Assembly (NCBI GenBank): GCA_050486105.1
Contig: JBJHCR010000002.1
Location: 1 to 62,268, forward strand
Source: Vulcanimicrobiota bacterium
GTDB taxonomy: Bacteria; Vulcanimicrobiota; Xenobia; Xenobiales; JADMJV01
Length of the DNA: 62,268 nt
Direction of reading: 5' to 3'
Part shown: piece by piece, positions 3,298 through 56,273 of the stretch
Position numbering within the stretch: position 1 is the first letter of the stretch
Layout: each line of letters opens with the position of its first letter
The notes under the pieces: model-generated
Told to the model about the DNA's origin: nothing
Database searches by the model: none
What the model saw: the letters and a program-made list of their open reading frames with translations, nothing else
Program-made: the position numbers and the translations under genes

Positions 3298-3354
3298 CAA
3301 AACCTTAGAGACCCTTTCTCCGGCTAATTGCCGCCAAAGGACCTCTAGTCCTCC

Positions 3355-4659: not shown

Positions 4660-4660
4660 G

Positions 4661-6655: not shown

Positions 6656-6659
6656 GCTG

Positions 6660-8675: not shown

Positions 8676-8791
8676 AACGCTACCTCTCCTCGCACCGTCG
8701 ACACCCCAAAACGGTCCTCATTCTTCGCGCCCCTCGTTATCGGTCGGTGAGGGTTGCACCTTGAGGCTTCTTTTGCCCTGGGTCGGAGATG

Positions 8792-9319: not shown

Positions 9320-9328
9320 CGCTGCACC

Positions 9329-9850
9329 TCACATATATTTCAGCAGGCCCTCAGCCTTGACGAGGATCTTCTTCTCATTCAGATAGGAAAGCTTCTTCTT
9401 AGCCACTCCAATATCGAACCACCCCACAGTATCGGCTTCCTGGTCTCTAGGCTGAGCGTTCTCCTGCACCAGACGCATGAGAAAAAACGTCACGGTCTTA
9501 TGGTAGAATGTGGAGTTCTCTTTCAAAAAGAAGTAGTATTCGATGGACTCAAGCTTTTCCAAAACCTTCCCCACATGGCCGGTCTCTTCAAGAATCTCGC
9601 GCTCGGCGGTCTGCTCCAGGGTCTCTCCCTTATCGACTCTCCCTTTTGGAAAGGCCCACACTCGATGACCCTTCTTGGCCACCAGACAGACCTGAACCCG
9701 ACTGCCTCGTTTCTTCACCAATAGCCCCCCAGCCGAGTGCTGTTCGGCTTTTCGGCCGCCAAAGAAGGCTCTCGGGGGCGGAGCGCCTTCATTCTCCGCC
9801 AAAATCGAGATCCTCGGTCTGTTGTCTCTTGAACTGAACGTCCCGGGCAA
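9329..9850 (-). CDS. NUDIX hydrolase
   Basis: The Nudix box GKVDKGETLEQTAEREILEETG matches GX5EX7REUXEEXGU. The ORF-track TTG start at 9850 overlaps the upstream gene by 62 nt, and an alternative TTG lies at 9802. The start is uncertain. Confidence 0.75.
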   Translation of the reverse strand: MPGTFSSRDNRPRISILAENEGAPPPRAFFGGRKAEQHSAGGLLVKKRGSRVQVCLVAKKGHRVWAFPKGRVDKGETLEQTAEREILEETGHVGKVLEKLESIEYYFFLKENSTFYHKTVTFFLMRLVQENAQPRDQEADTVGWFDIGVAKKKLSYLNEKKILVKAEGLLKYM

Positions 9851-14340: not shown

Positions 14341-15737
14341 CGGACTCTAGAACCCACCCGGCCGATTCTTTGGAAAACTTCCATGAAGAGAAGTGCCGAG
14401 AGTCGATGGAGGTCGTTTCGCTCCTAGGTGTGGTGGGTTACTTGATCGTTGCTATCCGGGATGTGGCGGTCGTCGGACCCTTGAGTCTCCTGCAATTCTT
14501 TCTGCTCCGTGACGCTTTGATGGTCGCTTTTTTCCTCTCTTTAAATCAGGTTCTAATGCGGGACGTTCTCCCTCGGGGATGGGCCCATCCCATGGCCTTT
14601 CTCAGCTGCGTTCTCCCGTGTTTGGGCACAGCCCTGGGGGTGCACGCGGGTGGAGACTTCATCCCTACAGGCTACTTCTTTTTGATCATCATCACCGCTG
14701 CTCTGGTCATGCTGAATATCTCCTGGTTTCTGTCGGCCTGCGCTATCACCATCGTGTCTTGGGGGGTTTCCTTCATGCCTTACTTCGAGAAAGAACTCTT
14801 CATCGAACAGGGGATAACTCTGGTGAGTTGCTGTCTGGTGGCGGGGGTTGCTCTGACTACTCGGCGCAACGAACTTCACCAACAATATCTCCTTTTGGAG
14901 ACAGAACGCAGCAAGCAAAGCGATCTGAGAGAGGCCTTGAATATCAACGCTGACCTCACCTCGAAACTCGACCAGGAGGTCGAAAAGCAAACGTCAGAAC
15001 TCTCTCGGCGTTTGGAAGAGCTTCATCAGTCCAAGGTCAAGGAAAGAAAGTTGGGTGAAGAAACCGCACGACTAGCGCGCGTCGAATCCGTGGGCCGGTT
15101 AGTCGGGGGCCTGGGACATCGATTCAACAATCTCTTCACCGTCATGCTGGGAAACACAACTATGCTGCAAGAGATTCGGGTAGATCAGGACAGGACCCAA
15201 GAAGGGGCCCTACTCGACCGCATGGAGGGTGCCATACTCCGTGCCAGTCGAGCGACTCAACCTCTAGCCTACCTAACCAATCCAGACTTGGAGAAAGTCG
15301 ACACCTTGAATCTTAAGGAAATCTATCTGCGATTGAAGGATTTTTTGGAAAGTTCGCTCTCACCAAAGCATCAGTACCGTTGTGATCTGGCGACTCCGAG
15401 TCAGATTCTAGAGGTCAATTTGGCCGCTCTCTACCAACTCTTACTCAATTTGTTTATCACCATCGATCAAACCTTGCCTGATAGGGGAAGCCTCCACCTT
15501 TTGCTCGAGAGCACGGAAAACGAGGCCACATTCACCTTGGAATGTCGCACCGAGCCTGATTCCAAAACCCAAGAATCATTGGCCTTGGGAAATCTGGACA
15601 CTCTAAATTCCTCTCTTTCGGCTATTTCCGGACGGCTCAATGTGGAGGAAGGGCGCCAGGGAACTAACATCATACTGACCTTCCCCACCAAGGCCTCCAA
15701 GGAGTCCAGCCGCCAAACTCAAAGCCAAGACCCATGA
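14337..15737 (+). CDS. membrane sensor histidine-kinase paralogue with H-box but degenerate ATP-binding domain
   Basis: A GTG start overlaps the upstream TGA (GTGA). It has a multi-pass TM N-terminus and a canonical H-box (ESVGRLVGGLGHRFNNLF). The C-terminal domain (LLLNLFITIDQTLPDRGSL...ECRTEPDSK...LGNLDTL) has no recognisable DxGxG or GxGxG. Confidence 0.7.
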   Translation: MTDSRTHPADSLENFHEEKCRESMEVVSLLGVVGYLIVAIRDVAVVGPLSLLQFFLLRDALMVAFFLSLNQVLMRDVLPRGWAHPMAFLSCVLPCLGTALGVHAGGDFIPTGYFFLIIITAALVMLNISWFLSACAITIVSWGVSFMPYFEKELFIEQGITLVSCCLVAGVALTTRRNELHQQYLLLETERSKQSDLREALNINADLTSKLDQEVEKQTSELSRRLEELHQSKVKERKLGEETARLARVESVGRLVGGLGHRFNNLFTVMLGNTTMLQEIRVDQDRTQEGALLDRMEGAILRASRATQPLAYLTNPDLEKVDTLNLKEIYLRLKDFLESSLSPKHQYRCDLATPSQILEVNLAALYQLLLNLFITIDQTLPDRGSLHLLLESTENEATFTLECRTEPDSKTQESLALGNLDTLNSSLSAISGRLNVEEGRQGTNIILTFPTKASKESSRQTQSQDP

Positions 15738-16324
15738 TTTTGTTGCGGTTCCTGGTCCTTATATTCCTGGCGATTGCTACCCCCCTTGTCGCTGAGCAGG
15801 TTGTCGAGCATCAAGGTCGCCCACTAGTTACCTTTGACTTGCCTGGTTTCGACCTGAGGGGCCAACGGACGGGCAAGACCTCTACCCTGACTTATGTTGG
15901 TCAGGATTCGCTCGAAAAGCGAGTTCAAGTGCAGGTCAAGATCAGAGGTTGGTTGGGTCCCGACAAGGCTGAGAAAGAGTATCGAGAAGACCGGATGCTG
16001 CGCAGGCAAGATCCTCATACCAGACTAGGTGAAGATCTGGTTGTGTCCGGCGCCACAAAGGCTCTAGAGTTTCGAACAACCCAACCGTATGAGGCCCATG
16101 TTTTGGTGATCTACACCAACGACTTTCGCTGCGAATTCACGCTGACTGGTAGCGAAGCTACTCGAGAATCAAGAGAGGCCCTCTTCAGTCAACTTCGTGA
16201 GTCGGTCAAGGTTCCGAAAGGTGGACTACGCCTAAGTCCAGAGGCCGACGAGCCCACCCCCGAGCCGGAGCTTCCTAAAATCGAGTTCCGCACGAAGCCG
16301 GCTCCTAAGGAACTCCAAGATTGA
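15734..16324 (+). CDS. secreted protein, function unknown
   Basis: The ATG overlaps the upstream TGA (ATGA). A signal peptide is present (MILLRFLVLIFLAIATPLVAEQ). 196 aa. Confidence 0.55.
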   Translation: MILLRFLVLIFLAIATPLVAEQVVEHQGRPLVTFDLPGFDLRGQRTGKTSTLTYVGQDSLEKRVQVQVKIRGWLGPDKAEKEYREDRMLRRQDPHTRLGEDLVVSGATKALEFRTTQPYEAHVLVIYTNDFRCEFTLTGSEATRESREALFSQLRESVKVPKGGLRLSPEADEPTPEPELPKIEFRTKPAPKELQD

Positions 16325-18292: not shown

Positions 18293-20647
18293 ATGAAGCG
18301 AGTCCTGATCGCCATGATCCCTGAAAATATCGCCGAATGGATCGAGATCCGACTCGGGGGAATTCGAGTTGTTTCCAGAGATTCGGTAGCAATGAGTCTC
18401 GAGGCGATGCAGGCCGACACCTGGGATCTGATCCTCATTCAACATACAGAATTTGGGCCCCAAGAATCGGAAGAACTGGGAAGTCTAGACTTGCTCGAGG
18501 CCATTCGGCAAACGGACAAGGGGCAAGACACCCCAGTTATTTACGTCTTGGACTCTCCTCCCTCCCGGACCTTGATGAATCAATTGGTCGACACCTACCA
18601 GGTGGCTCGAATTCTGGTCCACCCCCTGGACCCCGAAGATCTGCTGGTGGAGGTGTCGAGAACCCTGAGGCTCTCCCAAATCAACCCAGGAGACGAGCGA
18701 ACCACAGCCCTAAAGAAGCTGTGGCAGAAATTCCTCCCGACCACCATCTCCAGAATTGAAACCTTAGAAAACATGGGAATCGCTTTGGTAGAGGGGCGTG
18801 ACGACCAAGCTTTGCTCGTGAAAGCCGCAGGAGAGGCCCACAAACTGGCAGGTTCCCTGGGCTCCTTTGGTTATCCTCAAGGGTCGGTGCTGGCCAGTCG
18901 TCTGGAACAGATGCTCTCTGAAGAAGTGAGTGTGGACCGGATACCTGAGTTCACCGACCTAGTCCTCAAGCTCCGGAGTTTGATCAACACTCCCGGTGCG
19001 GTAATCAAGCAAAGCGTCGAACCCCTGGGACAGCAGGTCCTGCTCTTGGATGCTCCAGGACAACCCATTCAACTGCCTGTGAAGCAGAGAAACTTTGAGC
19101 TCTTGCGCTCAGAGCATCCAGGACAAGCCATTAAGCACCTTCAGGACAGCAGACCAGGGGCCATAATCGTTCACCTTGGAGTGAGCACCGAAGAGGAAGA
19201 GCGATTCGAATTTCTCCGCAACGCATCTCGTCGCCATCCCGATCTTCCGGTGTTGGTTCTGCTCCCGGAAACAGACCTGGAGCACCGGGTTAAAGCGCTC
19301 AGGAACGGCGCGCAATACTTGCTTGACAGCACCGCTCCTGCTGGACAGATTCAAGACGCCATAGATAGAGTGCTTCAGCAAAAGTTGGAGAGGATTCCGA
19401 GAGTTCTGATCCTCGATGACGATCCTGTTTTTAACGCTTCGGTGGAAGACCTGCTGACGAGAGCCGGAATGAGGGCCCAAGCTATTGTGTCGCCAGCGGA
19501 TTTGATGGAGACTTTGCATTCGTTCAAGCCGGATATCGCTCTGGTTGACATAAATCTTCCGATCATGTCAGGAATCGAAGTCTGTAGGCTTCTCAGGGGT
19601 CTAAGTCGCTGGAACGCCCTTCCAATTGTGCTGATGACCGCTGAAAAGCAATCCGACACGGTAATCAAGGTATTTCGCTGTGGGGCCGACGACTACGTGG
19701 CCAAGCCTGTAGTAGGCCCGGAATTGATAGCAAGAATTCGGAATCGTCTAGAGCGGCAGCAAACCGTCATCGATCTCGGGAGTACCGATCCGGTCACCGG
19801 ACTAGCTTCTTGGACCAGAGCCCGACCAAGACTCCGCAGCTTTCTGGATCTGTCTCGTCGTTCTGGACAGCCCTTGACCTTGGTCCTTCTGGAACTCGAC
19901 GATCTCAAGAACATGAGTCCCCAGAGTGCTGATCGAGAACTAGCTTGTCTCGGTCAGACCTTCGGCAACAGCTTCCGAAGTGAAGACACCGTTGCCAAGT
20001 ATGTTGGTGACCGCCTGATCTTGGGCCTTTACGGAATGCGACTCAGTGATGGCTTAGAGAGGTTGAATGGATTACTGTTGCGTTATAGTGAACGCTGGGG
20101 GAAAACATTCTCTGCTGGACTGGCCACCTTTCCTCAAGACGGGGACTCTCTTGACAGCTTGATCAACATGGCTGATCGCGCCCTGGAAAAAGCTCAAGGC
20201 CTGGGAGGGGGTCGAGTGGTCTCCGGCCAGACCACCTACTCCATAGGAAATTCTACCAAACAGCAGGTGGACGTCGGAGTGGTGGAAGACGATGCCCTAC
20301 TGGCACCGCTCGTTCTGCACGCTCTAGAGAACAAGGGATATCAGACTTTCTGGATCTCTGACGGCCTGGAAGCTTCTCGAAAACTTGTGGGAAAATCCTC
20401 TGACCGACGTGCTCGGGTTCTCCTGCTGGACGTGGACCTTCCCGGATTGTCGGGATATCAATTGCTGCGACAACTCAAAGAAGCAGGTAATTTGGACCAA
20501 ACCAAGGTCATACTGCTGACAGCCCGCACCGCTCAAAGCGATGTCCTAAAAAGTCTGGAAATGGGGGCCGTCGATCACGTCTCAAAACCATTCAGCCTGC
20601 CAGTGCTCCTCGAGAAAGTTCGGCAAGCTCTCAAGTCCGGCGACTGA
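18293..20647 (+). CDS. multidomain response regulator: pseudo-REC / HPt / pseudo-REC / REC / degenerate GGDEF (I-site retained) / REC
   Basis: The HPt motif is EAHKLAGSLGSFG (His183). REC3 is canonical (ILDDD...ALVDINLP...LMTAEK...YVAKP), as is REC4 (VVEDD...LLLDVDLP...LLTART...HVSKP). In REC1 and REC2 the acceptor Asp is replaced (LILIQH, IIVHLG). In the GGDEF domain the active site reads VGDRL, preceded by RSED at the canonical 5-residue spacing. Confidence 0.85.
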   Translation: MKRVLIAMIPENIAEWIEIRLGGIRVVSRDSVAMSLEAMQADTWDLILIQHTEFGPQESEELGSLDLLEAIRQTDKGQDTPVIYVLDSPPSRTLMNQLVDTYQVARILVHPLDPEDLLVEVSRTLRLSQINPGDERTTALKKLWQKFLPTTISRIETLENMGIALVEGRDDQALLVKAAGEAHKLAGSLGSFGYPQGSVLASRLEQMLSEEVSVDRIPEFTDLVLKLRSLINTPGAVIKQSVEPLGQQVLLLDAPGQPIQLPVKQRNFELLRSEHPGQAIKHLQDSRPGAIIVHLGVSTEEEERFEFLRNASRRHPDLPVLVLLPETDLEHRVKALRNGAQYLLDSTAPAGQIQDAIDRVLQQKLERIPRVLILDDDPVFNASVEDLLTRAGMRAQAIVSPADLMETLHSFKPDIALVDINLPIMSGIEVCRLLRGLSRWNALPIVLMTAEKQSDTVIKVFRCGADDYVAKPVVGPELIARIRNRLERQQTVIDLGSTDPVTGLASWTRARPRLRSFLDLSRRSGQPLTLVLLELDDLKNMSPQSADRELACLGQTFGNSFRSEDTVAKYVGDRLILGLYGMRLSDGLERLNGLLLRYSERWGKTFSAGLATFPQDGDSLDSLINMADRALEKAQGLGGGRVVSGQTTYSIGNSTKQQVDVGVVEDDALLAPLVLHALENKGYQTFWISDGLEASRKLVGKSSDRRARVLLLDVDLPGLSGYQLLRQLKEAGNLDQTKVILLTARTAQSDVLKSLEMGAVDHVSKPFSLPVLLEKVRQALKSGD

Positions 20648-20665
20648 AAACATCATGACCATCCT

Positions 20666-21733
20666 ATGACCTACGAACAGCTCTCTAGCTCAACGCTCTA
20701 TTGGCCCACGGTGGTCGAGTTGGTTTTGTTCTGTCTGGCCACAGCGGTCTTGCTTGGTCGAAGCGCCTGGCAGTCTTATTGGGAACACAGGCTCAAGGCA
20801 AGCTTCGAGGCCTGCTATCTGAAGGTGGTGGCTTATCTCACTGAGCAGCACAGCGACCTCGAAGATTCTGCCCAGGCGGTGAAGAAGCTTCCCCAACCAG
20901 AACGACTCAGACTCATCGGAGGACTCACGCTCCATCTGGCTGGGGAAGATCAGGTCCGACTCCTAGCGCTCGCCGATGCCACCGGCCTCATGGAAACCGC
21001 AAGTTCTGGATGTCGAGACCACCGCTGGTGGGTCCGTCTCCAAGGTGTTCGGACTCTAGTGACCTTGGGCAAAGCAGACCAAATACCTGAGACCCTGGTG
21101 AGAGATCCCCACTACTTGGTGCGAGCGGAAGCCGCCTACCTTTGGACCAGCCGGGGAACCGAAGGTATCGCGAGCTTGATCGAACTCCTAGGAGAGCCAT
21201 CTATGGTGGCTCGCTTCACCGTACAAGACGCCCTTTTGCGGATGGGGCAAGCCGTGGGGGAACCCCTCTCGAAGTTTCTAGCCAAGGAGGAGCAAGCAGG
21301 GACTTTGCCGGCTCTCGAAGTGGCCAGCCGGCTCGCCCACCCTGCCACCCTGATAGCTATCCTCAACCTCGCCAACAGTGAAGACGCCGAAATTCGAACG
21401 GCCTCGGCCAAGGCCTTAGGAGGCTTGGGAGGCAAGGACGCTCAAGACAAACTCTTGCATCTCCTCGACGACGTGAACCCCGAAGTGCGGGTCGCGGCAG
21501 CCGAAGCCGTAGGAGTTCTCTCAGATTGGAAGGCCACAGCCAAACTTGCAACCCTGCTGAGCGACGAGAACTGGCCGGTGCGAAAGGCCGCCGGTCTAGC
21601 TCTGATCCAAACCGGTCCTCCTGGAAAGTTGTATCTGACTCGATATGCTCGAGAAGATAAGAGTATGGCAGGAATCATGTCTCGCTATGTCTTGGCCCTT
21701 CCCTACGAACCCCACCCGGAGGAGTCTTTTTGA
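20666..21733 (+). CDS. membrane-anchored HEAT-repeat (PBS-lyase-type) protein
   Basis: One N-terminal TM helix (LYWPTVVELVLFCLATAVLLG) is followed by about six HEAT-like repeats (DPHYLVRAEAA, DAEIRTASAKALGGLG, DVNPEVRVAAAEAVGVL, DENWPVRKAAGLALIQTG). Its stop overlaps the start of the GT2 gene. Confidence 0.7.
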   Translation: MTYEQLSSSTLYWPTVVELVLFCLATAVLLGRSAWQSYWEHRLKASFEACYLKVVAYLTEQHSDLEDSAQAVKKLPQPERLRLIGGLTLHLAGEDQVRLLALADATGLMETASSGCRDHRWWVRLQGVRTLVTLGKADQIPETLVRDPHYLVRAEAAYLWTSRGTEGIASLIELLGEPSMVARFTVQDALLRMGQAVGEPLSKFLAKEEQAGTLPALEVASRLAHPATLIAILNLANSEDAEIRTASAKALGGLGGKDAQDKLLHLLDDVNPEVRVAAAEAVGVLSDWKATAKLATLLSDENWPVRKAAGLALIQTGPPGKLYLTRYAREDKSMAGIMSRYVLALPYEPHPEESF

Positions 21734-23133
21734 ACATTTGGCTTGAGCAACTCATTCTGGTCTATTTTCTCTTCGTCAACACCTTCTACGCTCTAGCCTT
21801 GCTTTTTGCAGCCCGAGAAATGAAGGACCATAAGAGACAGATCTGGGGAGAAAATTCGTACCGACTTTTGAGCTCCGAGATCACTCCCAAGGTCAGCGTT
21901 CTGGCTCCTGCTTTCAATGAAGAGTTGACCGTCGTAGGAAGTGTCAGGGCCCTCCTCAACCTGCACTACTCCAACTTGGAGGTGGTGGTTATCAACGACG
22001 GTTCTCCGGACCGCACCCTCGAAGTGCTGGTTCAGGCCTTCAAGCTTAAGCCCGTGGAACCGACCTATCACCTACAGCTCAAGACCTCTGAAATTCGAGG
22101 CTTGTACTTGACTCCGGACTACCCGAATCTGGTGGTGGTTGACAAAGTCAATGGGGGCAAGGCTGACGCCTTGAATCTTGGTCTTCAGATCGCTTCCGGA
22201 AAACTGATCTGCGCTATCGATGCCGACACTCTGGTGGAGTTCGACGCTCTCCAGAAAATGGTCAGGCCGTTTCTGTATCAAAACGATGTGGTTTGTGCTG
22301 GAGGGACTCTGCGAGTTCTCAATGGCAGCGTCGTTCAGGGAGGGGCGGTGAAGGAGGTCCGGACCCCGAGAACCCCACTGGAAGGCTTTCAAGCCGTGGA
22401 GTACGTGAGAGCCTTCCTGTTCGGACGCTTGGGGCTCAACAGAATGGGGGGGAATCTGATCATTTCCGGGGCCTTTGGCCTCTTTGACCGTCAGGCGATG
22501 GTCTCTGCTGGTGGCTATGCCCACGATTCTGTGGGTGAAGACATGGAACTGGTGGTGCGACTGCGTCGACTGGGGGTGGAGAACAAAACCGCTTCCAAGG
22601 CCGTTTTCATCCCCGATCCGGTGGCCTGGACCGAGGTTCCCTCATCCTTGCGAGTGCTCTTTCGTCAGAGAGATCGCTGGCATCGAGGACTGGCCGACGT
22701 TCTCTGGAGGCACAAAAAACTGTGTCTAAACCCAAAATACCGAGCCATGGGAAGCGTGGTCTACCCTTACTTCCTAACGGTAGAGTTGTTGAGCCCTCTG
22801 GTGGAAGCGGCAGGCCTGGCGCTAGTACTCTGGCAAGCCTATACCGGAGAGCTGTCCCTGAAATTCTTCTTGCTCTTTTTCCTGGTAGCCTATGGCTATG
22901 GAATACTCTTAAGTATTTTTGCCATGCTCCTCGACGAAGAGATCTTTGGCCGCTTTAAAACCGTTAAAGAGAGGGTCATCCTTTTGTTTTGGGTCCTGCT
23001 GGAAAACCTCGGTTACCGCCAATTCACCGTCCTGGCCAGACTCAGAGGGCTCTTCAAGTATCTCTTAGGTGACACCGCCTGGGGCAAAATGGAGCGCCAG
23101 GGTCTGACCAAAGAAACAGATGATGAGGAATAG
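21730..23133 (+). CDS. processive family-2 glycosyltransferase (PgaC/IcaA/BcsA-like polysaccharide synthase)
   Basis: A TTG start overlaps the upstream TGA. Motifs present are VLAPAFNEE, INDGSPD, DADT (DxD) and RQRDRWHRG (QxxRW). TM helices lie at the N-terminus and in the C-terminal third. There is no C-terminal PilZ-sized extension. Confidence 0.85.
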   Translation: MNIWLEQLILVYFLFVNTFYALALLFAAREMKDHKRQIWGENSYRLLSSEITPKVSVLAPAFNEELTVVGSVRALLNLHYSNLEVVVINDGSPDRTLEVLVQAFKLKPVEPTYHLQLKTSEIRGLYLTPDYPNLVVVDKVNGGKADALNLGLQIASGKLICAIDADTLVEFDALQKMVRPFLYQNDVVCAGGTLRVLNGSVVQGGAVKEVRTPRTPLEGFQAVEYVRAFLFGRLGLNRMGGNLIISGAFGLFDRQAMVSAGGYAHDSVGEDMELVVRLRRLGVENKTASKAVFIPDPVAWTEVPSSLRVLFRQRDRWHRGLADVLWRHKKLCLNPKYRAMGSVVYPYFLTVELLSPLVEAAGLALVLWQAYTGELSLKFFLLFFLVAYGYGILLSIFAMLLDEEIFGRFKTVKERVILLFWVLLENLGYRQFTVLARLRGLFKYLLGDTAWGKMERQGLTKETDDEE

Positions 23134-23140
23134 ACTCACC

Positions 23141-24859
23141 TTAGAACCTAAAGCGCATGCGCACTGTACCTGCGGTGTATTGAAATCCTTGGATCGAGGA
23201 GATGGCTGAGGTGGTGGTCAATCCTGAGAGTTCGATCTCGGCATTGTCGTTGAAGCGGTATCCGACGCCTGCCGACAACCGATAGACGAATTGAGGGTCT
23301 TCGACATCGATCGTTTGGTAGCCCGCGGCTCCCCCTAAGGAATAGATCCAAGGGTCGTCAGGATCTCGACGCTCCATTTCTGCGAACACCTCACCCACTT
23401 GAAAGGTGGGAGGGTTGAAATAGCCACTGAAGGTGCGGCGAGCATAATCGAGTTGCCGGAAACTGGCCCCAACCCGCAGGTCCGGAGTCATCCCCCGTAT
23501 GCGGTGAGCGAAGCTCGCCGAGTAGACGTTTCGGGAGTTCTGGTCTGAGAATGTGGAGCGAGCATAGCCCAGGCGGAGTTCATTGTCGGCCGGAAGCCGC
23601 ATACGGTAACCAAGGTCCACGGTGTCCATGGAGATGGCGTTCTCCACCAGTTGGGCCGTCTCTACCAGGATCTCCCGATTGTAACCGACCACCAGGTGGT
23701 GATCCGGATGAGGAGTGACCTGAAAGTTCAAACCTCCAATGGTCTCGCTTTGCCCTTGAGCCTGGTGTGGATCGAGAGAGACGGTGCCCAGCGAGGCGTT
23801 CATCGCAAGCTCGGGAGAGAATCGGGTGGAGACATTGGCAGTCAGCACCTCGGCCCGCCCAGAGAGCTCCTGATCCGGATTGCGATTATAAAAGTTCCGA
23901 TAGCTCAAGCGAAAACGGGTCTGCGGGTCCAAGGATACGGCGGCATCGGTTCCATAAATTTGTAGTTGGTTGTTGTCGCTGTCCTTAACGGTGGTGAACA
24001 CCGGGCTTAACTCAGGGGCCGTGGCCAAGCGCAGCAAGCGCAAGCTCTTCCGAGCGTCGTCGTGATTAGGATTGAGTTCCAGAGCCCTCTCTGTGTGACT
24101 ATAGGCCTCGCGGTTCATCCCTTGCCAGCGCCTGACATCTCCTAATCCGGCGTGAGCATCGGCACTTTCCGGATTTTCCTCCAAGATGGACTCGTACTTC
24201 TTGATGGCGGCAGCCAGATCATCGCTCCAAGCCAGGACGCGAGCGATCCCCAGCTGAGCCTCAACATTATCGGGAGAGTCCTCCAGAACACTGCAGTAGG
24301 AAGCGATGGCCTCATCGAAACGATCGCTCCAGCTCTGAACTCGAGCGATTCCCATACGAGCCTCGATATTTTTGGGATCTCGTTCAAGGATATGCCGATA
24401 AACGGTGATGGCCTCGTCGAACCTATTGGCCCAAGAGAGAGTGCGAGCCAAGCCCAAGCGAGCCTGAAGATCTCCAGGTCGCTCTTCGATAAGTTCGGTA
24501 TAGAGACGAGCGCTCTCGGAGAGGTCCCCCTTCCAGGCCAGGACTCTGGCTAAACTGCTACGCAGTTCCGGATCTCCGGGAACCAAATCCAGGGCCGAAC
24601 GATAGGCCTCTATGGACTCGGGCAGACGGTTCTCCCAGCTCAGGAGTAGCCCCAACCTGGACCAAGCTTCAATGTTGGCAGGCTCTAACTCCACCACTCG
24701 TCGATACAGACTCAAGCTTTCGGAGTACTCTTCTTGAACAAACTTCTGCTGGGCCTGCTCCATGATTCGGGGAATATCGTCCGTTTCAGCCCAAGCCGCT
24801 GGACCCCACAAGAGAAAGGTGGTGATCACCATCAAAAGAGTTTTTGCTGACGGCCTCAT
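23141..24859 (-). CDS. TPR-repeat + C-terminal beta-barrel outer-membrane protein (PgaA/BcsC/PelB-type polysaccharide export porin)
   Basis: A signal peptide is followed by about 7 very regular 34-aa TPRs (…EAxxGLARVLxWxxRxDEAIxxY…). The C-terminal half has alternating beta-strand-like sequence and ends in ...VRMRFRF (terminal Phe, the OMP signature). The ATG overlaps the upstream TGA. Confidence 0.7.
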   Translation of the reverse strand: MRPSAKTLLMVITTFLLWGPAAWAETDDIPRIMEQAQQKFVQEEYSESLSLYRRVVELEPANIEAWSRLGLLLSWENRLPESIEAYRSALDLVPGDPELRSSLARVLAWKGDLSESARLYTELIEERPGDLQARLGLARTLSWANRFDEAITVYRHILERDPKNIEARMGIARVQSWSDRFDEAIASYCSVLEDSPDNVEAQLGIARVLAWSDDLAAAIKKYESILEENPESADAHAGLGDVRRWQGMNREAYSHTERALELNPNHDDARKSLRLLRLATAPELSPVFTTVKDSDNNQLQIYGTDAAVSLDPQTRFRLSYRNFYNRNPDQELSGRAEVLTANVSTRFSPELAMNASLGTVSLDPHQAQGQSETIGGLNFQVTPHPDHHLVVGYNREILVETAQLVENAISMDTVDLGYRMRLPADNELRLGYARSTFSDQNSRNVYSASFAHRIRGMTPDLRVGASFRQLDYARRTFSGYFNPPTFQVGEVFAEMERRDPDDPWIYSLGGAAGYQTIDVEDPQFVYRLSAGVGYRFNDNAEIELSGLTTTSAISSIQGFQYTAGTVRMRFRF

Positions 24860-27618
24860 CTCGGCACTCTCCCGTCAAATTTTCGGAATTTATCTCTCAT
24901 ACGGTAGTAGGTTTCCTTAAATTCCCAGTGGTAACTTGGACGCTCCCAGTTCTGCCACTTGAAGGTTCGACTCAAACTGTAAGGCTGCCCCTGTTGGGGG
25001 GGCAAAACTTCGACCACCCTGGGCTTGGTTTCTCCACTGCCTCGTTCATAAAGGCATACCAGAAAGTGAAAGCCCTCAGTAGTTTTGGTTTCCACATCGC
25101 CTGTCTCCCAGGCTTGAAAAATGGCTTGATGAGACGAGGGGTCGGTGATGTGGAGAAGCCCCCAGGGGATACGAAGCTCCAAGAGGTTCCCATTGAGATT
25201 CCAGTCGGCCAGAGTGTTGAAGTCGGCTCTCGCGCTGTCCAGGCTCCCTCGACTGAGGGCTCCCCATTCAAGGCGTTGAGCCGGATAGACTGTTCCGTCT
25301 CGTCCGATCCGGCGGCGATTTGTTTCCACCACGATGGGGACAAATTTGCCCTCGTGGCTCTTCTGAGGCTGCATAAAGGGATTTCGAACCTGGGCATACT
25401 CTCCGTCGGTTCCCTGGATGGGGACCTTCCGATAGGGCTGATAATCTTCAGCCACCAAGAGTCTGGAGTCCTGTTCTCCCTCAATGAGGATCAAGAACTC
25501 GAGCCCTTGCTGAGTGGTGACTTCAAAAGGAGGTGGGAACCGGTGCTCTCCGAGCTCCGGTTCGATGGTGTCGATCCCTATGGCGATCCCATAACGGTCA
25601 AAGTTCAGAGTCTCTAGGCCCAGCAATTCGATAGCCAGATACAGCCAACCCTCGTCACTGTGCACCTTGAGAGTCTTCAGGCCGGGTTCAGATGAGGTGT
25701 CAGCGAGTTCGCTCTGGGACCTTCGACGGGCCAAAACCTCAGCGCCTGCCCATTCTTTGGAGGAGCCCACAAGAGTAGAAAAGAGTCTCTCTGCCCCCGG
25801 ACGCATAGCGATTATGCCATAGTTCTGCTCCGGGTCCAGGGGGTTGAGCCACATTCGGTTGCGATCCAGCGGGATCTCCACATCGATGACCACCCAGTTC
25901 TTCTTGAACCATTCATCGATCCAGGCAAAAAGAATCGCTCCGGCACAACCGGCATCCACGATATCGTCGGTGAGCTTGACGTTGATTTCGGCCTGCTCAA
26001 TCTCGGTGTGACCTCCGTGGTCATACCCTTGAGGCTGAACGTGGGCGTTTCCCCGACTCGACGGCACCCCGTACTCGGAGATCAATAGCGGCATGTCTCC
26101 ATAATGGGCCTTGAGATTCTTTAGGTAACCCAGGTAATGGCTTTGCCCGTGTCGCCCCACGGCCTCTCCAAAGTGCTCCTCATTGACCATGAAGTCGGGA
26201 TAATAGGGATAGGCGTGGTAGGAGGCAAAAATTCCAGCCTGAAAAGAGGAGTCGACTTCAATGTTGGTGGAGGTGATGTCCACCGCATCGTTGTCGTACT
26301 CTCGAAGTTCTCTTCGGCTGAATTCCCCTCGCTCGGCCATCAAACGAATCTCTTCGTCCTTGGTGGCCTCGCTGATGTGGTGCAGGGGGTCCAAGGTGGG
26401 CCAGTTGGTGAACGCTATGGGGCGTTGGGCATGATAGCGCTCCATTTCGTAGACTGCGATCTCGTCGCAGACCTGGGCCATCCAGGCCTCGGTGGGGTTC
26501 CCTCCTTGGCAACTGAAGTAGGTTCCCTGATAGGTGTAGTTCGGATGGAGGGCGGCGAACTCTTCCACCGAGTAGGGCTCCCACTCGCGGCCCAGGATAT
26601 AGCCCAGAACCCAGGGTGAGACATCCACATTGTAGGTGCCCGAAGCGTGACCCGGACGACGAGGGATGTCGGCCTGACCGTGCAGGAGATCCACCACTCG
26701 GTGCATCTCCTGGAGGAATTCTTGATAGAACTCCTGGCCTAAAAAGTCGTCATCCTCGGGGAGTTCTGTCCAGACTCCGTGGATCAGCCAAAGCGGTGAG
26801 TTGGATGCATCCTGCTGATACTGCCAGAAGGCTTCATAAAAGCTGGGAGGCAGGATGGTGTACACCCGAACAACATTGCAACCCATTTCGGCCATCTGTT
26901 GGAGCCAGTCGAGATAGAACTCTCGAGACTGAGGAAACTCCGATGGGTGCCGTCCGGGAAGGGCCGCCCCAAGATTGACTCCGTGCAGCAACACGGGGGA
27001 CCATTGCCCATCCTGAAGGACCTCAAGATAGTCCTTGCCGGCCCGGTAGGTCCAAACCAGCTCTTCAGGGCGCACCAGGTCCTTTCGCGCAGCTAGAGGG
27101 GCTTCCGGTTCTTGCAAGTTTTCCAGTTGGCGAAAGACTTGCAGAGCTTCTCCGTGCTCTGGCTCAAGCTCCAACAGTTTGCCCAGCCGCTCCCTGGCTC
27201 GAAAGGGGCGGTCCATCCGATATAGGGCAAGACCGGCACCCAAAAGAGCGTCCTTGCTTTTGGGATGCTGCAGGAGAGCCTTCTCAAAAAGCTCTAAGGC
27301 CTCGGGATTTTGACCTTGCCGCAGAGCGATGAAGGCGAGTCCGGTCTCGGCCTCTGGGTGGTCTGGGCGAAGGGCAAGAGAGCCCCGAAAAGACGCTTCT
27401 GCCTCTTCGATGTCTCCCAGACGATAGTGGGACCACCCTATCCAAAGACGCACTTCGGCATCGTCTCGTTCGGTCTGCACCTGCTGGAAGGCAGTCAAGG
27501 CCTCCTTGAAACGCTGCTGCATGTAGAGCTCGAAGGCCTGATCGTAGGTGGGTGCAGCACTAAGCCCCCCGCCAAAGCAAGCCAGAAGGGTCACGAGTAT
27601 GAGAAAGTGGCGTTTCAT
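24856..27618 (-). CDS. TPR-domain + TIM-barrel glycoside-hydrolase-like periplasmic protein or lipoprotein
   Basis: The start was set at the ATG at 27618 (MKRHFLILVTLLAC..., a signal/lipobox-like LLAC). An N-terminal TPR block is followed by a clan-A-like hydrolase region (GCNVVRVYTILPP...; LLISEYGVPSS with a candidate nucleophile Glu; AILFAWIDEWFKKNW). Confidence 0.6.
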   Translation of the reverse strand: MKRHFLILVTLLACFGGGLSAAPTYDQAFELYMQQRFKEALTAFQQVQTERDDAEVRLWIGWSHYRLGDIEEAEASFRGSLALRPDHPEAETGLAFIALRQGQNPEALELFEKALLQHPKSKDALLGAGLALYRMDRPFRARERLGKLLELEPEHGEALQVFRQLENLQEPEAPLAARKDLVRPEELVWTYRAGKDYLEVLQDGQWSPVLLHGVNLGAALPGRHPSEFPQSREFYLDWLQQMAEMGCNVVRVYTILPPSFYEAFWQYQQDASNSPLWLIHGVWTELPEDDDFLGQEFYQEFLQEMHRVVDLLHGQADIPRRPGHASGTYNVDVSPWVLGYILGREWEPYSVEEFAALHPNYTYQGTYFSCQGGNPTEAWMAQVCDEIAVYEMERYHAQRPIAFTNWPTLDPLHHISEATKDEEIRLMAERGEFSRRELREYDNDAVDITSTNIEVDSSFQAGIFASYHAYPYYPDFMVNEEHFGEAVGRHGQSHYLGYLKNLKAHYGDMPLLISEYGVPSSRGNAHVQPQGYDHGGHTEIEQAEINVKLTDDIVDAGCAGAILFAWIDEWFKKNWVVIDVEIPLDRNRMWLNPLDPEQNYGIIAMRPGAERLFSTLVGSSKEWAGAEVLARRRSQSELADTSSEPGLKTLKVHSDEGWLYLAIELLGLETLNFDRYGIAIGIDTIEPELGEHRFPPPFEVTTQQGLEFLILIEGEQDSRLLVAEDYQPYRKVPIQGTDGEYAQVRNPFMQPQKSHEGKFVPIVVETNRRRIGRDGTVYPAQRLEWGALSRGSLDSARADFNTLADWNLNGNLLELRIPWGLLHITDPSSHQAIFQAWETGDVETKTTEGFHFLVCLYERGSGETKPRVVEVLPPQQGQPYSLSRTFKWQNWERPSYHWEFKETYYRMRDKFRKFDGRVPR

Positions 27619-28805: not shown

Positions 28806-30119
28806 ATGCCGGAAACCCGCATTTTAAAAAGCCGACGAGTGGTGCTCGAAGACCAGATCAAACCCCTAGCCCTGGTGGTGCAGGAAGGCTCCATTATTGC
28901 CCATCAGCCCTATGACCAACCCAGCGGAGGATTCCCTGAGGTCGATTATGGGGAGGCCGCCATTCTGCCGGGACTGATCGATATTCACGTGCACTTCAAC
29001 GAACCTGGACGCACCCACTGGGAGGGCTGGGAAACAGGAACCCGGGCGGCCATAGCTGGAGGGGTGACCACGGTGGTCGATATGCCCCTCAATTGCATTC
29101 CTTCCACCACGGATCCGGACTCGTTTCGAGAAAAACTTGCCTCTACCGAGGGCAAGCTTTTTTGTGATGTGGGCTTCTGGGGGGGGGCTGTGCCCAGCAA
29201 CATCGACCAACTCGAAGCCCTCTGGAACTGCGGAGTGTTGGGCTTCAAGGCCTTTCTGTCGGACCCCGGCACGGCCGAGTTTCAGAATCTAGACGAATCC
29301 TCACTGACCCAAGCCATGCAGACCATCGCTCAACTTGGAGCAGTTCTGCTGGTTCACGCCGAGTGGCCCAGCGCCTTATTGGACCCGAAACCTGAGCATC
29401 CTGGCACCACTTACCAGGCCTGGCTTGCGACCCGGCCCTTGCAGGCCGAGCGAGAGGCCATCGCCAAATTGGTGGCCCTGTCCGAGCGGTTCGGTTGTCG
29501 CTGTCACGTCGTTCACCTCTCTAGTGGGGATTTATGCGACCTCCTGACCACTGAGCTTGTCACCAGTGAAACCTGTCCTCACTACCTCACCTTTTGCGCT
29601 GAAGAGATACCCGACCGGGCCACCTACTTCAAATGTGCTCCACCCATCCGTGGGCAAGAGCATAGGGACTCCTTATGGGAGCGCCTCAAAGACGGCTCTA
29701 TCGATCTCATCGCCTCAGATCATTCTCCTTGCCCCGGAGATCTCAAGTCCGAAAATTTCTTGACCTCATGGGGAGGCATCGCTTCGGTGCAAACCACTCT
29801 GCCGGCTGTTTGGACCTCCGCCAGACAACGGGGCTTCGATCTCCCTGACTTGGCTCGCTGGCTCAGCTCCAATCCCGCTCGGGTGGCTGGCCTCTCCAGG
29901 TTGAAGGGAAGCCTGGAAGTCGGCAAACATGCTGATCTCCTGGTCTTTTCGCCTGAGCAGGAGTGGACTCCAGCAAATCTCCTGCATCGCCATGCCGGTT
30001 CACCCTATGAAGGCAGGACCTGGCGTGGGCTGGTGGAAGCCACCTATTTGCGTGGAGAGCAAATATTTGACGGATCCCAAGTCTCTGACCCCCCTTCGGG
30101 ACGATTCATCGAACGCTAA
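28806..30119 (+). CDS. allB: allantoinase
   Basis: The sequence is colinear with E. coli AllB by eye: GLIDIHVHFNEPGRTHWEGWETGTRAAIAGGVTT, KCAPPIR, SDHSPCP and WGGIAS. Confidence 0.85.
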   Translation: MPETRILKSRRVVLEDQIKPLALVVQEGSIIAHQPYDQPSGGFPEVDYGEAAILPGLIDIHVHFNEPGRTHWEGWETGTRAAIAGGVTTVVDMPLNCIPSTTDPDSFREKLASTEGKLFCDVGFWGGAVPSNIDQLEALWNCGVLGFKAFLSDPGTAEFQNLDESSLTQAMQTIAQLGAVLLVHAEWPSALLDPKPEHPGTTYQAWLATRPLQAEREAIAKLVALSERFGCRCHVVHLSSGDLCDLLTTELVTSETCPHYLTFCAEEIPDRATYFKCAPPIRGQEHRDSLWERLKDGSIDLIASDHSPCPGDLKSENFLTSWGGIASVQTTLPAVWTSARQRGFDLPDLARWLSSNPARVAGLSRLKGSLEVGKHADLLVFSPEQEWTPANLLHRHAGSPYEGRTWRGLVEATYLRGEQIFDGSQVSDPPSGRFIER

Positions 30120-30199
30120 CCGCAACTCTCACCACCTTGGAGGAAGCCTTGTCACAAAGCATCGGTCCGGACAGCGAGATTCAAATCCCAGACCGCTTG

Positions 30200-30688
30200 A
30201 TGCACTTGAATGCCTGCTCAGAAGAGGAGCGGTGCAACCTCTTTCGGGAGGTCTGCCACTCCCAGCGTTGGATTCGTGAGCTGAATAGTCTGGCTCCCTA
30301 TAAGAGTCTGGAAGATTTGATCGCCAAGGGCACTCAAGCCTGGACGAAATGCGAAGAGCCCGACTGGAAAGAGGCCCTAGCCGGGCATCCCCGGATCGGA
30401 GAGAAAGCTCAGGGAAATCAACTCGCTTCACGTTGGTCTCGAGGGGAACAGGCCGCGGCAGCCGATTCTGACCAGGAAGCTGCCGAGCGCCTGAGAACTA
30501 GACAGCAAGAGTACGAGGAAAGGTTCGGATACCTGTTCTTAATCTGTGCCACCGGGAAGAGCCGCCAGGAGATCATCGATGCCCTCGAAGCCCGCCTCCT
30601 GTCTGAGCCCAAAGTCGAAATGCTTGTCGTCTCAAAAGAACTAGCGAAGATCATTAGCCTGAGATTGGAGAAACTGGTAACGCAATGA
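30200..30688 (+). CDS. uraD: 2-oxo-4-hydroxy-4-carboxy-5-ureidoimidazoline (OHCU) decarboxylase
   Basis: The pattern MHLNACSEEERCNLFREVCHSQRW...LAGHPRIGEK...YEERFGYLFLICATGKS is the typical OHCU decarboxylase pattern. The ATG at 30200 is preferred over the ORF-track TTG at 30137. Confidence 0.8.
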   Translation: MHLNACSEEERCNLFREVCHSQRWIRELNSLAPYKSLEDLIAKGTQAWTKCEEPDWKEALAGHPRIGEKAQGNQLASRWSRGEQAAAADSDQEAAERLRTRQQEYEERFGYLFLICATGKSRQEIIDALEARLLSEPKVEMLVVSKELAKIISLRLEKLVTQ

Positions 30689-31026
30689 GTGCCATAACCA
30701 CCCACATTCTAGACACCTCTCTGGGTCGACCCGCAGCGGGAGTCATCGTCCGGCTAGATTTTCTTGACGACGGGGATTGGAAGAGAGTCGGCGGAGGTTG
30801 CACCGATCAGGACGGTCGAGTCAAAGACCTCATCAAGGAAGGTTTCGAATTCTGCAAAGGTCACTATCGCTTAGAGTTTGTCGTAGCCGACTATTTTCAA
30901 GCTCAGGGGACCAAGAGTTTCTATCCTTACGTGAAAATTGTTTTCATGGTGGAGGACACCGAGAGCCACTATCACGTCCCTTTGCTCTTGAACCCGTTCG
31001 GCTATTCCACTTATCGAGGAAGCTGA
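30685..31026 (+). CDS. uraH: 5-hydroxyisourate hydrolase (transthyretin-like)
   Basis: 113 aa. The N-terminus is ITTHILDTSLGRPAAGV and the C-terminal tetrapeptide is YRGS, the HIUase signature. The ATG overlaps the upstream TGA. Confidence 0.9.
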   Translation: MSAITTHILDTSLGRPAAGVIVRLDFLDDGDWKRVGGGCTDQDGRVKDLIKEGFEFCKGHYRLEFVVADYFQAQGTKSFYPYVKIVFMVEDTESHYHVPLLLNPFGYSTYRGS

Positions 31027-31088
31027 AGCGCTCGGTTTGAGCAGAACTGCGCCAAGAGTTCGAAACGAGGGCCAGAAAGGGTTAAAAC

Positions 31089-32294
31089 ATGAGCGGAGCG
31101 GCCTTAGAGTGGGCAAATCTAGCGGTGCGTTGGTTCCACGTCATTGCCGGAATCTGGTGGATCGGAAGCTCCCTTTATTTCGTCTGGTTGGACAACTCCT
31201 TCGAGCCTCCCAAGGAACCCAGGGATGGGGTGGAAGGTGAGACCTTCATGGTCCACGGAGGCTTCTACTACCTGGTAGAAAAACGCCTGATGCAGCCTGG
31301 CAAGATGCCTGAAAAGCTCCATTGGTTTAAATGGGAAGCAACCTTCACCTGGATCAGCGGCATGATCCTTTTGGCCATCGTCTACTACTTCACCGGTGGC
31401 TCCTACCTCATCGACTCCAAAGTGGCCGATATCAGCCTGACGGTTGCAGTGGCCGCCTCTCTCGCCATCGTCTTAGGAAGTTGGGTAGCTTACGACCTGA
31501 TGTGGCAGACCATCGGCAAGAAGAGTGAGCCCGTGGGCACCGCGCTTTCGATTCTTGGGATGGTGGCCCTGGCCTACGGCCTGACCCATCTGTTCAGCGG
31601 AAGGGCGGCCTTCATCCACTTTGGTGCGGTGCTCGGGACACTGATGGTGGCCAACGTTTGGATTCGCATCCTTCCCGGACAGCAGAAGATGCTGGATGCC
31701 GCCATGGCTGGTGAAACCCCGGACTACTCCCAAGGCAAGTACGCCAAAGTCCGTTCGGTTCACAACTCCTATATGACCTTTCCGGTGATCTTCATGATGA
31801 TCTCCAACCACTACGCCAACACCTTCAGCCACGAATACAACTGGGTCATCATACTCTTGCTGTTCATCATCGGCGCAGGGATACGTCACCACCAGATCTG
31901 CTCTGAGCGAGGACAATCAGCCAATTGGGTCTGGGCACCAGTCTTGGTCAGTCTAGCTATCACCGTCTTCATGACCCTACCTAAAGGTGCTGGTGGAGCA
32001 GGAGAGGCTGTTGCGGCCGAAGATCGGGTCCCCTTCTCCCAAGTCCAGATCATCATCGCCAACCGCTGCGTTTCCTGCCACTCCTCTGAGCCGAGCCAGC
32101 AAGGTTACGCGTTGACTGTAGCCCCCAATGGTGTGTTGCTGGAAACCCCGGAACAGATTCGCGGACTGGCCCAGAAGATCAGGGAGCAGTCGGTGGACTC
32201 TAGAGCTATGCCCTTGGGCAACCTCACTCGGATGACCGAGGAGGAACGGGAAGTTCTTGGCACCTGGGTGCAACAAATGGGCGGAGGGCACTAA
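31089..32294 (+). CDS. puuD: membrane-bound cytochrome-c urate hydroxylase
   Basis: An N-terminal polytopic domain begins WANLAVRWFHVIAGIWWIGSSLYFVWLDN. The C-terminus carries a single haem-c site, CVSCHS (CxxCH). This matches the PuuD architecture, and the gene is co-located with uraH/uraD/allB. Confidence 0.75.
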   Translation: MSGAALEWANLAVRWFHVIAGIWWIGSSLYFVWLDNSFEPPKEPRDGVEGETFMVHGGFYYLVEKRLMQPGKMPEKLHWFKWEATFTWISGMILLAIVYYFTGGSYLIDSKVADISLTVAVAASLAIVLGSWVAYDLMWQTIGKKSEPVGTALSILGMVALAYGLTHLFSGRAAFIHFGAVLGTLMVANVWIRILPGQQKMLDAAMAGETPDYSQGKYAKVRSVHNSYMTFPVIFMMISNHYANTFSHEYNWVIILLLFIIGAGIRHHQICSERGQSANWVWAPVLVSLAITVFMTLPKGAGGAGEAVAAEDRVPFSQVQIIIANRCVSCHSSEPSQQGYALTVAPNGVLLETPEQIRGLAQKIREQSVDSRAMPLGNLTRMTEEEREVLGTWVQQMGGGH

Positions 32295-56272: not shown

Positions 56273-56273
56273 G

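Follow-up and report, generated by a model that had tools for sequence, protein, structure and literature searches.

A probable exopolysaccharide synthase locus of undescribed type in a Vulcanimicrobiota bacterium, with a HEAT-repeat membrane protein and a putative phosphorelay regulator

Five genes in two convergent blocks

The analyzed stretch, hereafter the window, is a 62,268-nucleotide piece of DNA from a Vulcanimicrobiota bacterium (GenBank assembly GCA_050486105.1, contig JBJHCR010000002.1, positions 1 to 62,268). Between positions 18293 and 27618 it carries five genes, named here A to E, which probably encode all the parts of an as yet undescribed kind of synthase-dependent exopolysaccharide machine. 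They form two convergent blocks, A-B-C on the + strand and E-D on the - strand, and all five open reading frames (ORFs) were recovered where the original prediction, made from the sequence alone, had placed them. The genes on either side are unrelated (a CitMHS transporter gene upstream; a DUF6935 gene and then urate-catabolism genes downstream), and thus the boundaries 18293-27618 are correct. The gene structure, the motifs, the folds of D and E, and the conserved gene linkage reported below were all demonstrated computationally.

Gene C (21730 to 23133, + strand, 467 amino acids; Pfam Glycos_transf_2, Glyco_tranf_2_3, and Glyco_trans_2_3) encodes a family-2 glycosyltransferase (GT2), the predicted synthase. 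It has the motifs DAD164-166, GED269-271, and QRDRW313-317 and at least three transmembrane (TM) helices (8-26, 349-367, and 379-397), one of them N-terminal and the others C-terminal, in agreement with the polytopic processive GT2 with DxD and QxxRW motifs announced earlier. Judged by its D, DxD, GED, and QxxRW motifs, its TM helices at both ends, and its similarity to BcsA and PgaC, C would belong to the processive synthase class. It has no PilZ or other C-terminal receptor domain, the sequence ending after the TM helices. The best NCBIfam model for C is PgaC_IcaA (TIGR03937, 6.3e-39), at 134 bits versus a cut-off of 422, and the CelA model gave 49 bits versus 699. Among PDB sequences, C matched BcsA, the nearest solved processive membrane-embedded synthase (9e-8 to 1.2e-7, residues 45-336), and its identity to Escherichia coli proteins is 25% for PgaC, 24% for YaiP, 22% for NfrB (E = 0.008), and 21% for BcsA (GT core only). 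In comparison, C is 33-73% identical to the GT2s that are linked to HEAT genes in other genomes, and 43% to the archaeal one. In a small neighbor-joining tree, drawn without IcaA, NodC, HAS, PssC, and XagB, all these HEAT-linked GT2s group together in a single clade, to which PgaC is the closest outgroup. The identities, the TIGR03937 score, and this clade together place C outside every characterized synthase family tested, and neither NCBIfam release 20 nor Pfam holds a model specific to the HEAT-linked GT2 clade.

Directly upstream, gene B (20666 to 21733, + strand) encodes a HEAT-repeat membrane protein of 355 amino acids (Pfam HEAT_2, 1.9e-22), and its stop codon shares a 4-nucleotide (nt) overlap with the start of C, which bears out the translational coupling suggested earlier. 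B starts with a single N-terminal TM helix (residues 13-31), followed by an R/K-rich sequence and then by the HEAT repeats; because the R/K-rich stretch comes after the TM helix, we infer that the HEAT domain is cytoplasmic. Comparison of B with the Pga, Bcs, and Nfr components of E. coli gave no match, and Pfam and NCBIfam release 20 hold no model specific to B.

The regulator gene A (18293 to 20647, + strand) encodes 784 amino acids with Pfam matches to Response_reg (2.1e-51), GGDEF (4.4e-12), and Hpt (5.7e-08). Its domains follow each other in the order N-terminal REC-like fold, Hpt (His183), pseudo-receiver, REC1 (Asp419 and Lys471), degenerate GGDEF, and REC2, two of the REC domains being canonical by Pfam. 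TM prediction gave no helix for A, and the protein is cytoplasmic. The active-site motif VGDRL replaces GGDEF, and RSED stands at the I-site position five residues upstream (RSED-TVAKY-VGDRL). With this pairing of a degenerate GGDEF and an RxxD five residues upstream, A has the sequence signature expected of a receptor of the PelD/PssE type. In an alignment of A with six orthologues from four lineages (alignment A3), all seven sequences share the Hpt His183 and, in REC1, Asp419 and Lys471, and each of them has a degenerate GGDEF motif. The RxxD is retained only in the window and in L087 and L091, the last two being the closest relatives; the orthologues from Xenobia, Acidimicrobiales, and Gemmatimonadaceae have lost it. 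The designation of A as a cyclic di-GMP (c-di-GMP) receptor-regulator in the original prediction was therefore sound as regards the degenerate GGDEF with its RxxD and overstated as a property of the system, the site being confined, among the aligned sequences, to the window and its two nearest relatives. At the REC2 phospho-acceptor position, L087 and L091 have Glu (MEVDLP and LEVDLP) and the window has Asp (LDVDLP); from the sequences, this Glu could be a natural phosphomimic.

Upstream of the locus, three overlapping ORFs lie at 12922-16324 on the + strand, namely, a 472-amino-acid HATPase_c kinase, a 466-amino-acid ORF with an H-box-like GHRFNNLF and no Pfam match, and a 196-amino-acid ORF. 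They are possible sensor partners of A. The idea that these kinase-like genes correspond to the unknown genes beside the operon of the closest relatives was rejected, as the two are not homologous.

On the opposite strand, gene D (23141 to 24859, - strand, 572 amino acids, C-terminus ...RMRFRF) encodes the predicted outer-membrane porin, with a Sec signal peptide (...AAWA/ETDD), helical TPR pairs over residues 29-280, and a 16-strand β-barrel over 283-571 ending in RFRF. The AlphaFold2 (AF2) model of D has a predicted local distance difference test score (pLDDT) of 94.3, a predicted template modeling score (pTM) of 0.85, and 16 strands. Foldseek matched it best to BcsC (9b8a, 7e-15), with PelB (9h80_M; template modeling score TMt 0.72) and the PgaA barrel (4y25; TMt 0.78, root mean square deviation 3.8 Å) also found, so that the outer-membrane barrel predicted beforehand is borne out by the model, with 16 strands as in PgaA, BcsC, and PelB. 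All structural relatives of D found by Foldseek are export porins, and by its model D would be a TPR-bearing outer-membrane β-barrel export porin. The sequence is far less telling: D scored 77 bits against the PgaA porin equivalog TIGR03939 (cut-off of 367), this PGA_TPR_OMP model being the second-best curated one behind the generic TPR lipoprotein PrsT (8.3e-22), and the BLASTP similarity to PgaA is marginal, the fold alone being in common. A 26-sequence profile of the D barrel gave nothing significant against PDB sequences, and an exhaustive HMMER search collected 312 representative clusters of the barrel. A word-indexed search with the same 300-residue barrel returned zero matches, not even itself; barrel families of this kind are easily overlooked by a fast word index.

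Gene E (24856 to 27618, - strand) ends with a 4-nt overlap between its stop codon and the start of D. It encodes 920 amino acids, counted from the ATG preceding the signal peptide, and is predicted to be a secreted hydrolase-like protein with a possible lipobox (LLAC), a TPR region at ~25-170, a (β/α)8 barrel at ~210-570, and one or more C-terminal β-sandwich regions to residue 920. Past the TPR, the ~700 residues of E have no Pfam, NCBIfam, or PDB sequence match, the PDB search giving TPR hits only, and NCBIfam release 20 and Pfam hold no model specific to the catalytic region. AF2, run on 32 sequences, modeled the 738-residue remainder as a barrel with a β-sandwich tail (pLDDT 89.8, pTM 0.92), and Foldseek found GH157 nearest (1.6e-12), then GH2 and GH5; E is thus placed in clan GH-A of the glycoside hydrolases (GH), and the earlier description of a periplasmic TPR protein with a TIM-barrel GH-like domain is upheld. 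On the model, the candidate acid/base is Glu345 (GREWEP; codon 26584-26586) and the candidate nucleophile is Glu515 (ISEYG; codon 26074-26076). In model numbering, as read off the DSSP string, GREWEP comes after strand 155-160 and SEYG closes strand 329-334, and these modeled positions agree with the (β/α)8 barrel and the Glu after β4 and β7 that characterize clan GH-A. In a 32-sequence alignment (A1), the invariant residues at the barrel strand ends are Arg (β2), Glu in GREWEP (β4), H-x-Y (β6), Glu in SEYG (β7), and Trp (β8). By its signal peptide, modeled GH-A fold, and conserved candidate Glu residues, E is predicted to be a periplasmic enzyme that cleaves or modifies the polymer.

Homologues of the catalytic region of E, clustered at 90%, number more than 4830. 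Relatives occur in at least 593 GTDB species, mainly Gemmatimonadota and Acidobacteriota, and also Longimicrobium, Eisenbacteria, Holophagaceae, and a cyanobacterium, the best GTDB match being 50% identical. More distant homologues retain most of the strand-end residues, and both Glu residues are present in all but two Firmicute copies: the β4 Glu is missing in Planococcus and in paralogue 2 of Paenibacillus, and the β7 Glu is also missing in Planococcus. In these copies (Planococcus maritimus, L094 5271-7340; Paenibacillus paralogue 2, L095 7571-10693) the losses read ISSFS for ISEYG and GDTWNQ for GREWEP, and judged by sequence such proteins may serve in binding instead of catalysis.

Genes C and D converge, and only 7 bp separate their stop codons (23133-23141). 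The sole terminator-like match between them, at 23140-23122 on the - strand, belongs to a chance-level set, since promoter and terminator scans of the window gave counts at chance level. With no convincing terminator between C and D, the transcripts of the two blocks would therefore collide or overlap. An Rfam scan of the whole window found no c-di-GMP riboswitch and no other RNA family.

Two linked modules across phyla

Conservation of the gene set was assessed by a hidden Markov model (HMM) scan of the 80 best E-seeded loci from GTDB species; at the thresholds applied, none of the four HMMs matched the E. coli pga locus, which served as a negative control. A D-type barrel adjoins E in 73 of the 80 loci. 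A GT2 is present in 29, always with a HEAT gene beside it (29/29) and nearly always with a REC gene (28/29). Of the 38 loci in which E is flanked by 7 kb or more on either side, 37 have D and 15 have the GT2-HEAT pair. The E-D pair is adjacent to REC-HEAT-GT2 in Gemmatimonadota, Acidobacteriota, Longimicrobium, and a "Burkholderiales" metagenome-assembled genome (MAG), in at least four gene orders, and this variation between lineages argues for selection for linkage rather than for one inherited arrangement.

Searches seeded with the GT2 recovered a response regulator gene followed by HEAT and GT2 from one MAG each of Acidimicrobiales and Xenobia and from the nearest metagenomic relatives, which are 71-73% identical; in L091, this trio comes with a porin and no E. 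Annotated plasmids of cultured strains, among them that of Emticicia described below, gave further arrangements. In Deinococcus radiophilus ATCC 27603 (LMT64_RS12480-12490) and Planococcus maritimus, the TPR-hydrolase, HEAT, and GT2 genes form a three-gene operon, and Paenibacillus cellulosilyticus has a hydrolase-HEAT-GT2 operon with two hydrolase paralogues. The haloarchaeon Salinirubellus has REC-HEAT-GT2, and Mesorhizobium ciceri WSM1271 (MESCI_RS31990-32020) has the order kinase-REC-REC-YaiO barrel-HEAT-GT2-Hpt. RefSeq gives the genes of the cultured strains generic names only. Altogether, REC-HEAT-GT2 was seen in at least seven bacterial phyla and one haloarchaeon, and the GT2-HEAT pair extends to Firmicutes, Deinococcota, Actinomycetota, Bacteroidota, Alphaproteobacteria, and haloarchaea.

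In all GT2 loci examined but that of Emticicia, an orthologue of B immediately precedes the GT2 gene. In Emticicia, the ORF adjoining the GT2 scored under the HEAT threshold; a response regulator gene lies upstream of the GT2 at a distance of ~1.3 kb, and a YaiO barrel gene lies downstream. The 4-nt overlap between HEAT and GT2 genes is also found in other phyla and in one archaeon (L002, L004, L089, L090, L091, L096, and L097, by called or annotated coordinates). Hybrid kinase or Hpt genes adjoin the synthase module in Gemmatimonadaceae, Mesorhizobium, and Acidimicrobiales, and in many lineages a single-domain REC alone stands upstream of HEAT-GT2.

The expected co-occurrence was thus borne out for E with D and for GT2 with HEAT, with the modules linked in several phyla. 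The notion of a five-gene set held insofar as the parts recur together, and gave way to that of two linked modules, REC-HEAT-GT2 and TPR-hydrolase with porin. The core synthase module is HEAT plus GT2, usually with REC, and the envelope module is the hydrolase plus, in diderms, a D-type or YaiO-type porin.

A YaiO-family barrel replaces the D-type porin beside the HEAT-linked GT2 in M. ciceri (L097 4048-5790), a Xenobia MAG (L090 9400-10149), and Emticicia (L098 8334-9095); in E. coli, yaiO lies two genes from the uncharacterized GT2 gene yaiP and the putative deacetylase gene yaiS. In the close relatives L087 (3322-6504) and L088, the GT2 of which is 71% identical to C, two genes diverge from the response regulator-HEAT-GT2 operon. 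In L087, the first encodes a 607-amino-acid protein with a weak CE4 match (PF01522, 22.2 bits versus a cut-off of 23.1) and the second a secreted 443-amino-acid protein without Pfam match, a homologue of which follows the porin gene in L007 (14211-14996). Neither gene has a homologue in the window.

Relation to known systems and proposed mechanism

Models of synthase-dependent secretion come from cellulose, alginate, poly-N-acetylglucosamine (PNAG), Pel, and recently Nfr, mostly in Proteobacteria and mostly gated by c-di-GMP. We scanned the five proteins and the neighboring ORFs of at least 150 amino acids, up to ~50 kb of the 62-kb window, and found no BcsB, PgaD, CE4, PilZ, or Pel-specific family (PelA and PelC-G) among them, as had been stated beforehand for PilZ on the synthase, BcsB, PgaD, CE4, and PelD-G. 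By fold and by overall logic, the locus belongs to the synthase-dependent class. The claim that the accessory set is unlike those described also stands, the locus lacking those defining features of the Pga, Bcs, Pel, and Nfr systems that were tested.

Among the closest systems, PgaABCD shares with the locus a GT2 with the same motif set, a small membrane partner, a porin with TPR and 16 strands, and a predicted periplasmic hydrolase. However, C scores far under the PgaC/IcaA equivalog cut-off and falls in a separate clade, and the 355-amino-acid HEAT protein B stands where PgaD would. PgaB is a GH153 domain fused to CE4, whereas E is a clan GH-A domain fused to TPR, with no CE4; by BLASTP, E has no similarity to PgaB, and B, D, and E gave none to PgaD or PgaB. 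Regulation in Pga acts through c-di-GMP at the PgaC-PgaD interface, and here it would act through the phosphorelay protein A. The Bcs system (BcsABZC) has the same overall logic, including a dedicated periplasmic endo-hydrolase, and BcsC is the best structural match to D, but the locus has neither PilZ on the synthase nor BcsB nor GH8, and so lacks the BcsA-PilZ and BcsB pairing. With Pel, D has the PelB-like TPR porin fold in common and A resembles the idea of PelD (a cytoplasmic receptor with degenerate GGDEF and I-site); unlike in Pel, the glycosyltransferase is a GT2 and not a GT4 such as PelF, and A is soluble with Hpt and REC domains. The comparison with these Pel components was made by family models, and no Pel-specific Pfam or NCBIfam family (PelA, PelC, PelE, and PelG) was among the matches. 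NfrAB/YbcH likewise combines a GT2 synthase and a large TPR outer-membrane protein in a minimal gene set, but NfrB has a c-di-GMP-binding MshEN domain that C lacks, and D resembles NfrA only by generic TPR similarity. GH157, GH2, and GH5 share with E the (β/α)8 barrel, the Glu after β4 and β7, and the C-terminal β-sandwich, whereas E is only 10-14% identical to them, has R-E-W-E-P instead of N-E-P as its β4 motif, and is fused to TPR and encoded beside an export porin. The xagABCD genes of Xanthomonas may be a named relative; the papers on them mention no HEAT protein or GH-A hydrolase. No curated family or solved structure covers the gene set, and the openly searchable full-text literature (subscription-only texts excluded) gave no description of it, the terms "HEAT repeat," "GT2," and "exopolysaccharide" never occurring together.

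We propose a model in which C would polymerize a common UDP-sugar into a β-linked chain and thread it through its own TM channel. C would act in complex with the single-pass protein B, which would fill the place of PgaD, BcsB, or Alg44. Phosphoryl groups would pass from a hybrid kinase to the Hpt domain of A and then to its receivers, resulting in post-translational gating from the cytoplasm: a phosphorylated receiver would dock on the HEAT solenoid and turn the synthase on. B and A are the candidates for this inner-membrane activation by virtue of gene linkage and of the conserved signaling residues. In this lineage, a c-di-GMP input may be added through the RxxD in the dead GGDEF domain of A. 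On the periplasmic side, the TPR arms of E and D would form a scaffold, the GH-A domain of E would trim or release the chain, and the 16-strand barrel of D would be the polymer exit. In other systems, chain trimming or release is the role of BcsZ, the C-terminal domain of PgaB, PelA, and AlgL. The HEAT-GT2 complex, the signaling from phosphorylated REC to HEAT, the hydrolase activity, and the polymer are the parts of this model that we infer. A mechanism of the proposed kind is documented in Myxococcus xanthus, where phosphorylated EpsW directly activates the enzyme EpsZ at the post-translational level (bioRxiv 10.1101/2025.09.10.675344); that case differs from ours in belonging to a Wzx/Wzy pathway, in targeting a phosphoglycosyl transferase, and in having no HEAT adaptor.

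As for the polymer, no nucleotide-sugar synthesis gene lies beside the cassette in any locus examined, which points to a donor from housekeeping metabolism, e.g., UDP-GlcNAc or UDP-Glc. Our guess, made without computed basis for its weights, is a β-linked homopolymer of N-acetylhexosamine (HexNAc) or glucose, with a HexNAc-based chain somewhat short of an even chance and a glucan a little behind it. The HexNAc hints are that PgaC is the nearest family to C and that the operon of the closest relatives has a weakly CE4-like gene as a neighbor, and the glucan hint is that the nearest fold to E is a β-1,3-glucanase. With the hints from the GT2 and from the hydrolase diverging, the earlier opinion that the polymer is not predictable from known paradigms holds good.

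Two other readings would bring the locus closer to a known system. It could be argued that c-di-GMP controls the system, A being a PelD/PssE-like receptor acting through its degenerate GGDEF I-site with the receivers secondary. The RSED exactly five residues before the degenerate motif, likewise in L087 and L091, speaks for this, and PelD sets the precedent of a synthase-dependent system with an I-site receptor. Nevertheless, the RxxD is gone in the Xenobia, Acidimicrobiales, and Gemmatimonadaceae orthologues, all of which still carry the Hpt His and the REC Asp and Lys; many lineages have only the single-domain REC upstream of HEAT-GT2; and neither the locus nor the scanned neighboring ORFs yielded a diguanylate cyclase or a phosphodiesterase. 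We therefore regard c-di-GMP control as rather unlikely. Because the Hpt His and the REC1 Asp and Lys are conserved family-wide and the RxxD in the closest relatives only, a phosphorelay appears from the sequences to be the better-supported input to A. It could also be argued that the locus is a diverged PNAG system of the Pga/Hms type, in which C would make poly-β-1,6-GlcNAc, D would be a short PgaA, and E would replace the hydrolase half of PgaB, deacetylation being either unneeded or carried out by an enzyme encoded elsewhere. PgaC_IcaA is indeed the best curated model for C and PGA_TPR_OMP the second-best for D, the PgaA barrel superposes on D (TMt 0.78), the relatives L087/L088 have the weak CE4-like gene next to their operon (PF01522, 22.2 bits), and an operon survey mentioned, without pursuing it, an environmental pga arrangement without pgaB and pgaD (PMC7112194). 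Yet C reaches only 134 of 422 bits and 25% identity to PgaC, compared with 43% to an archaeal HEAT-linked GT2, and D only 77 of 367 bits. Moreover, there is no PgaD or CE4 in the locus or among the scanned window ORFs, and E is unlike PgaB, its fold being clan GH-A and not GH153, with a β-1,3-glucanase as nearest neighbor. Thus, a PNAG system appears unlikely, a little more so than control by c-di-GMP.

A further reading separates the two blocks, which would be independent systems abutting by chance, A-B-C making a cell-associated glycan or glycolipid and E-D serving as an outer-membrane pair for glycan uptake or degradation. It could draw on the well-flanked E loci without GT2 within ~7-10 kb (23 of 38), on L091 with its response regulator-HEAT-GT2 and porin and no E, and on the lineages in which a YaiO-type barrel stands in for D beside the GT2. 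We consider it highly improbable, since E, HEAT, and GT2 form one co-directional operon in Deinococcus, Planococcus, and Paenibacillus, E-D stands beside REC-HEAT-GT2 in Gemmatimonadota, Acidobacteriota, Longimicrobium, and the "Burkholderiales" MAG in at least four orders, and the structural relatives of D are all export porins.

Several points nonetheless weigh against a single exopolysaccharide machine gated by phosphorelay, which we prefer. The locus is known from sequences and predicted models; the models are of single chains, and the HEAT-GT2 and REC-HEAT contacts are deduced from gene order. The 23 well-flanked E loci mentioned above have no GT2-HEAT within their flank of ~7-10 kb, and the Planococcus homologue of E has neither candidate catalytic Glu. 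On the input side, the RxxD site is unconserved beyond close relatives, the nearest kinases of the window (12922-15737) are cut off from the locus by the citrate-transporter gene, and a REC gene is missing from the operons of the Firmicutes and of Deinococcus, so that phospho-control is not universal. As to the product, the sequence does not reveal the polymer, the GT2 leaning to PgaC and the hydrolase fold to β-1,3-glucanase.

Beyond the locus itself, we tentatively put forward a wider hypothesis, which as a whole has the odds somewhat against it. REC-HEAT-GT2 could be an ancient module across prokaryotes in which the HEAT solenoid senses receiver phosphorylation and switches the synthase; diderms could have recruited the porin and the TPR-hydrolase, the latter founding a new clan GH-A family; and the undescribed polymer could be the product of a fifth major synthase-dependent system, dominant in soil phyla such as Gemmatimonadota and Acidobacteriota. 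If true, this gating would be the counterpart of that by PilZ or PgaD, but of a two-component kind and independent of c-di-GMP. The locus would add three new parts to a familiar plan: a HEAT partner, a phosphorelay regulator (instead of or besides c-di-GMP), and a TPR-fused hydrolase family without Pfam model. Gemmatimonadota and Acidobacteriota are abundant in soil, and to our knowledge their matrix polymers are essentially unknown. Cultured carriers such as D. radiophilus, M. ciceri, and P. maritimus make the polymer, the enzyme, and the signaling directly testable.

Other features of the window

A second, unrelated cluster of polysaccharide type occupies 2437-11297 on the - strand and includes a GT4 gene (3355-4815), tandem AsnB-like amidotransferase genes (4661-6769 and 6660-8675), a GNAT acetyltransferase gene, and a NUDIX hydrolase gene, several of its ORFs having no Pfam match. 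Downstream of the locus, the urate-catabolism cluster (28806-32294) encodes an amidohydrolase, an OHCU decarboxylase, and a Urate_ox_N protein, and is followed at 32257-34482 by a gene for a 741-amino-acid metallo-β-lactamase-fold protein with two cyclic nucleotide monophosphate (cNMP)-binding domains. A 1086-amino-acid carboxylic-acid-reductase-like protein (AMP-binding and NAD_binding_4) is encoded at 45407-48667. Finally, the G+C content is 0.61-0.63 at 56001-60000 compared to ~0.55 across the rest of the window.

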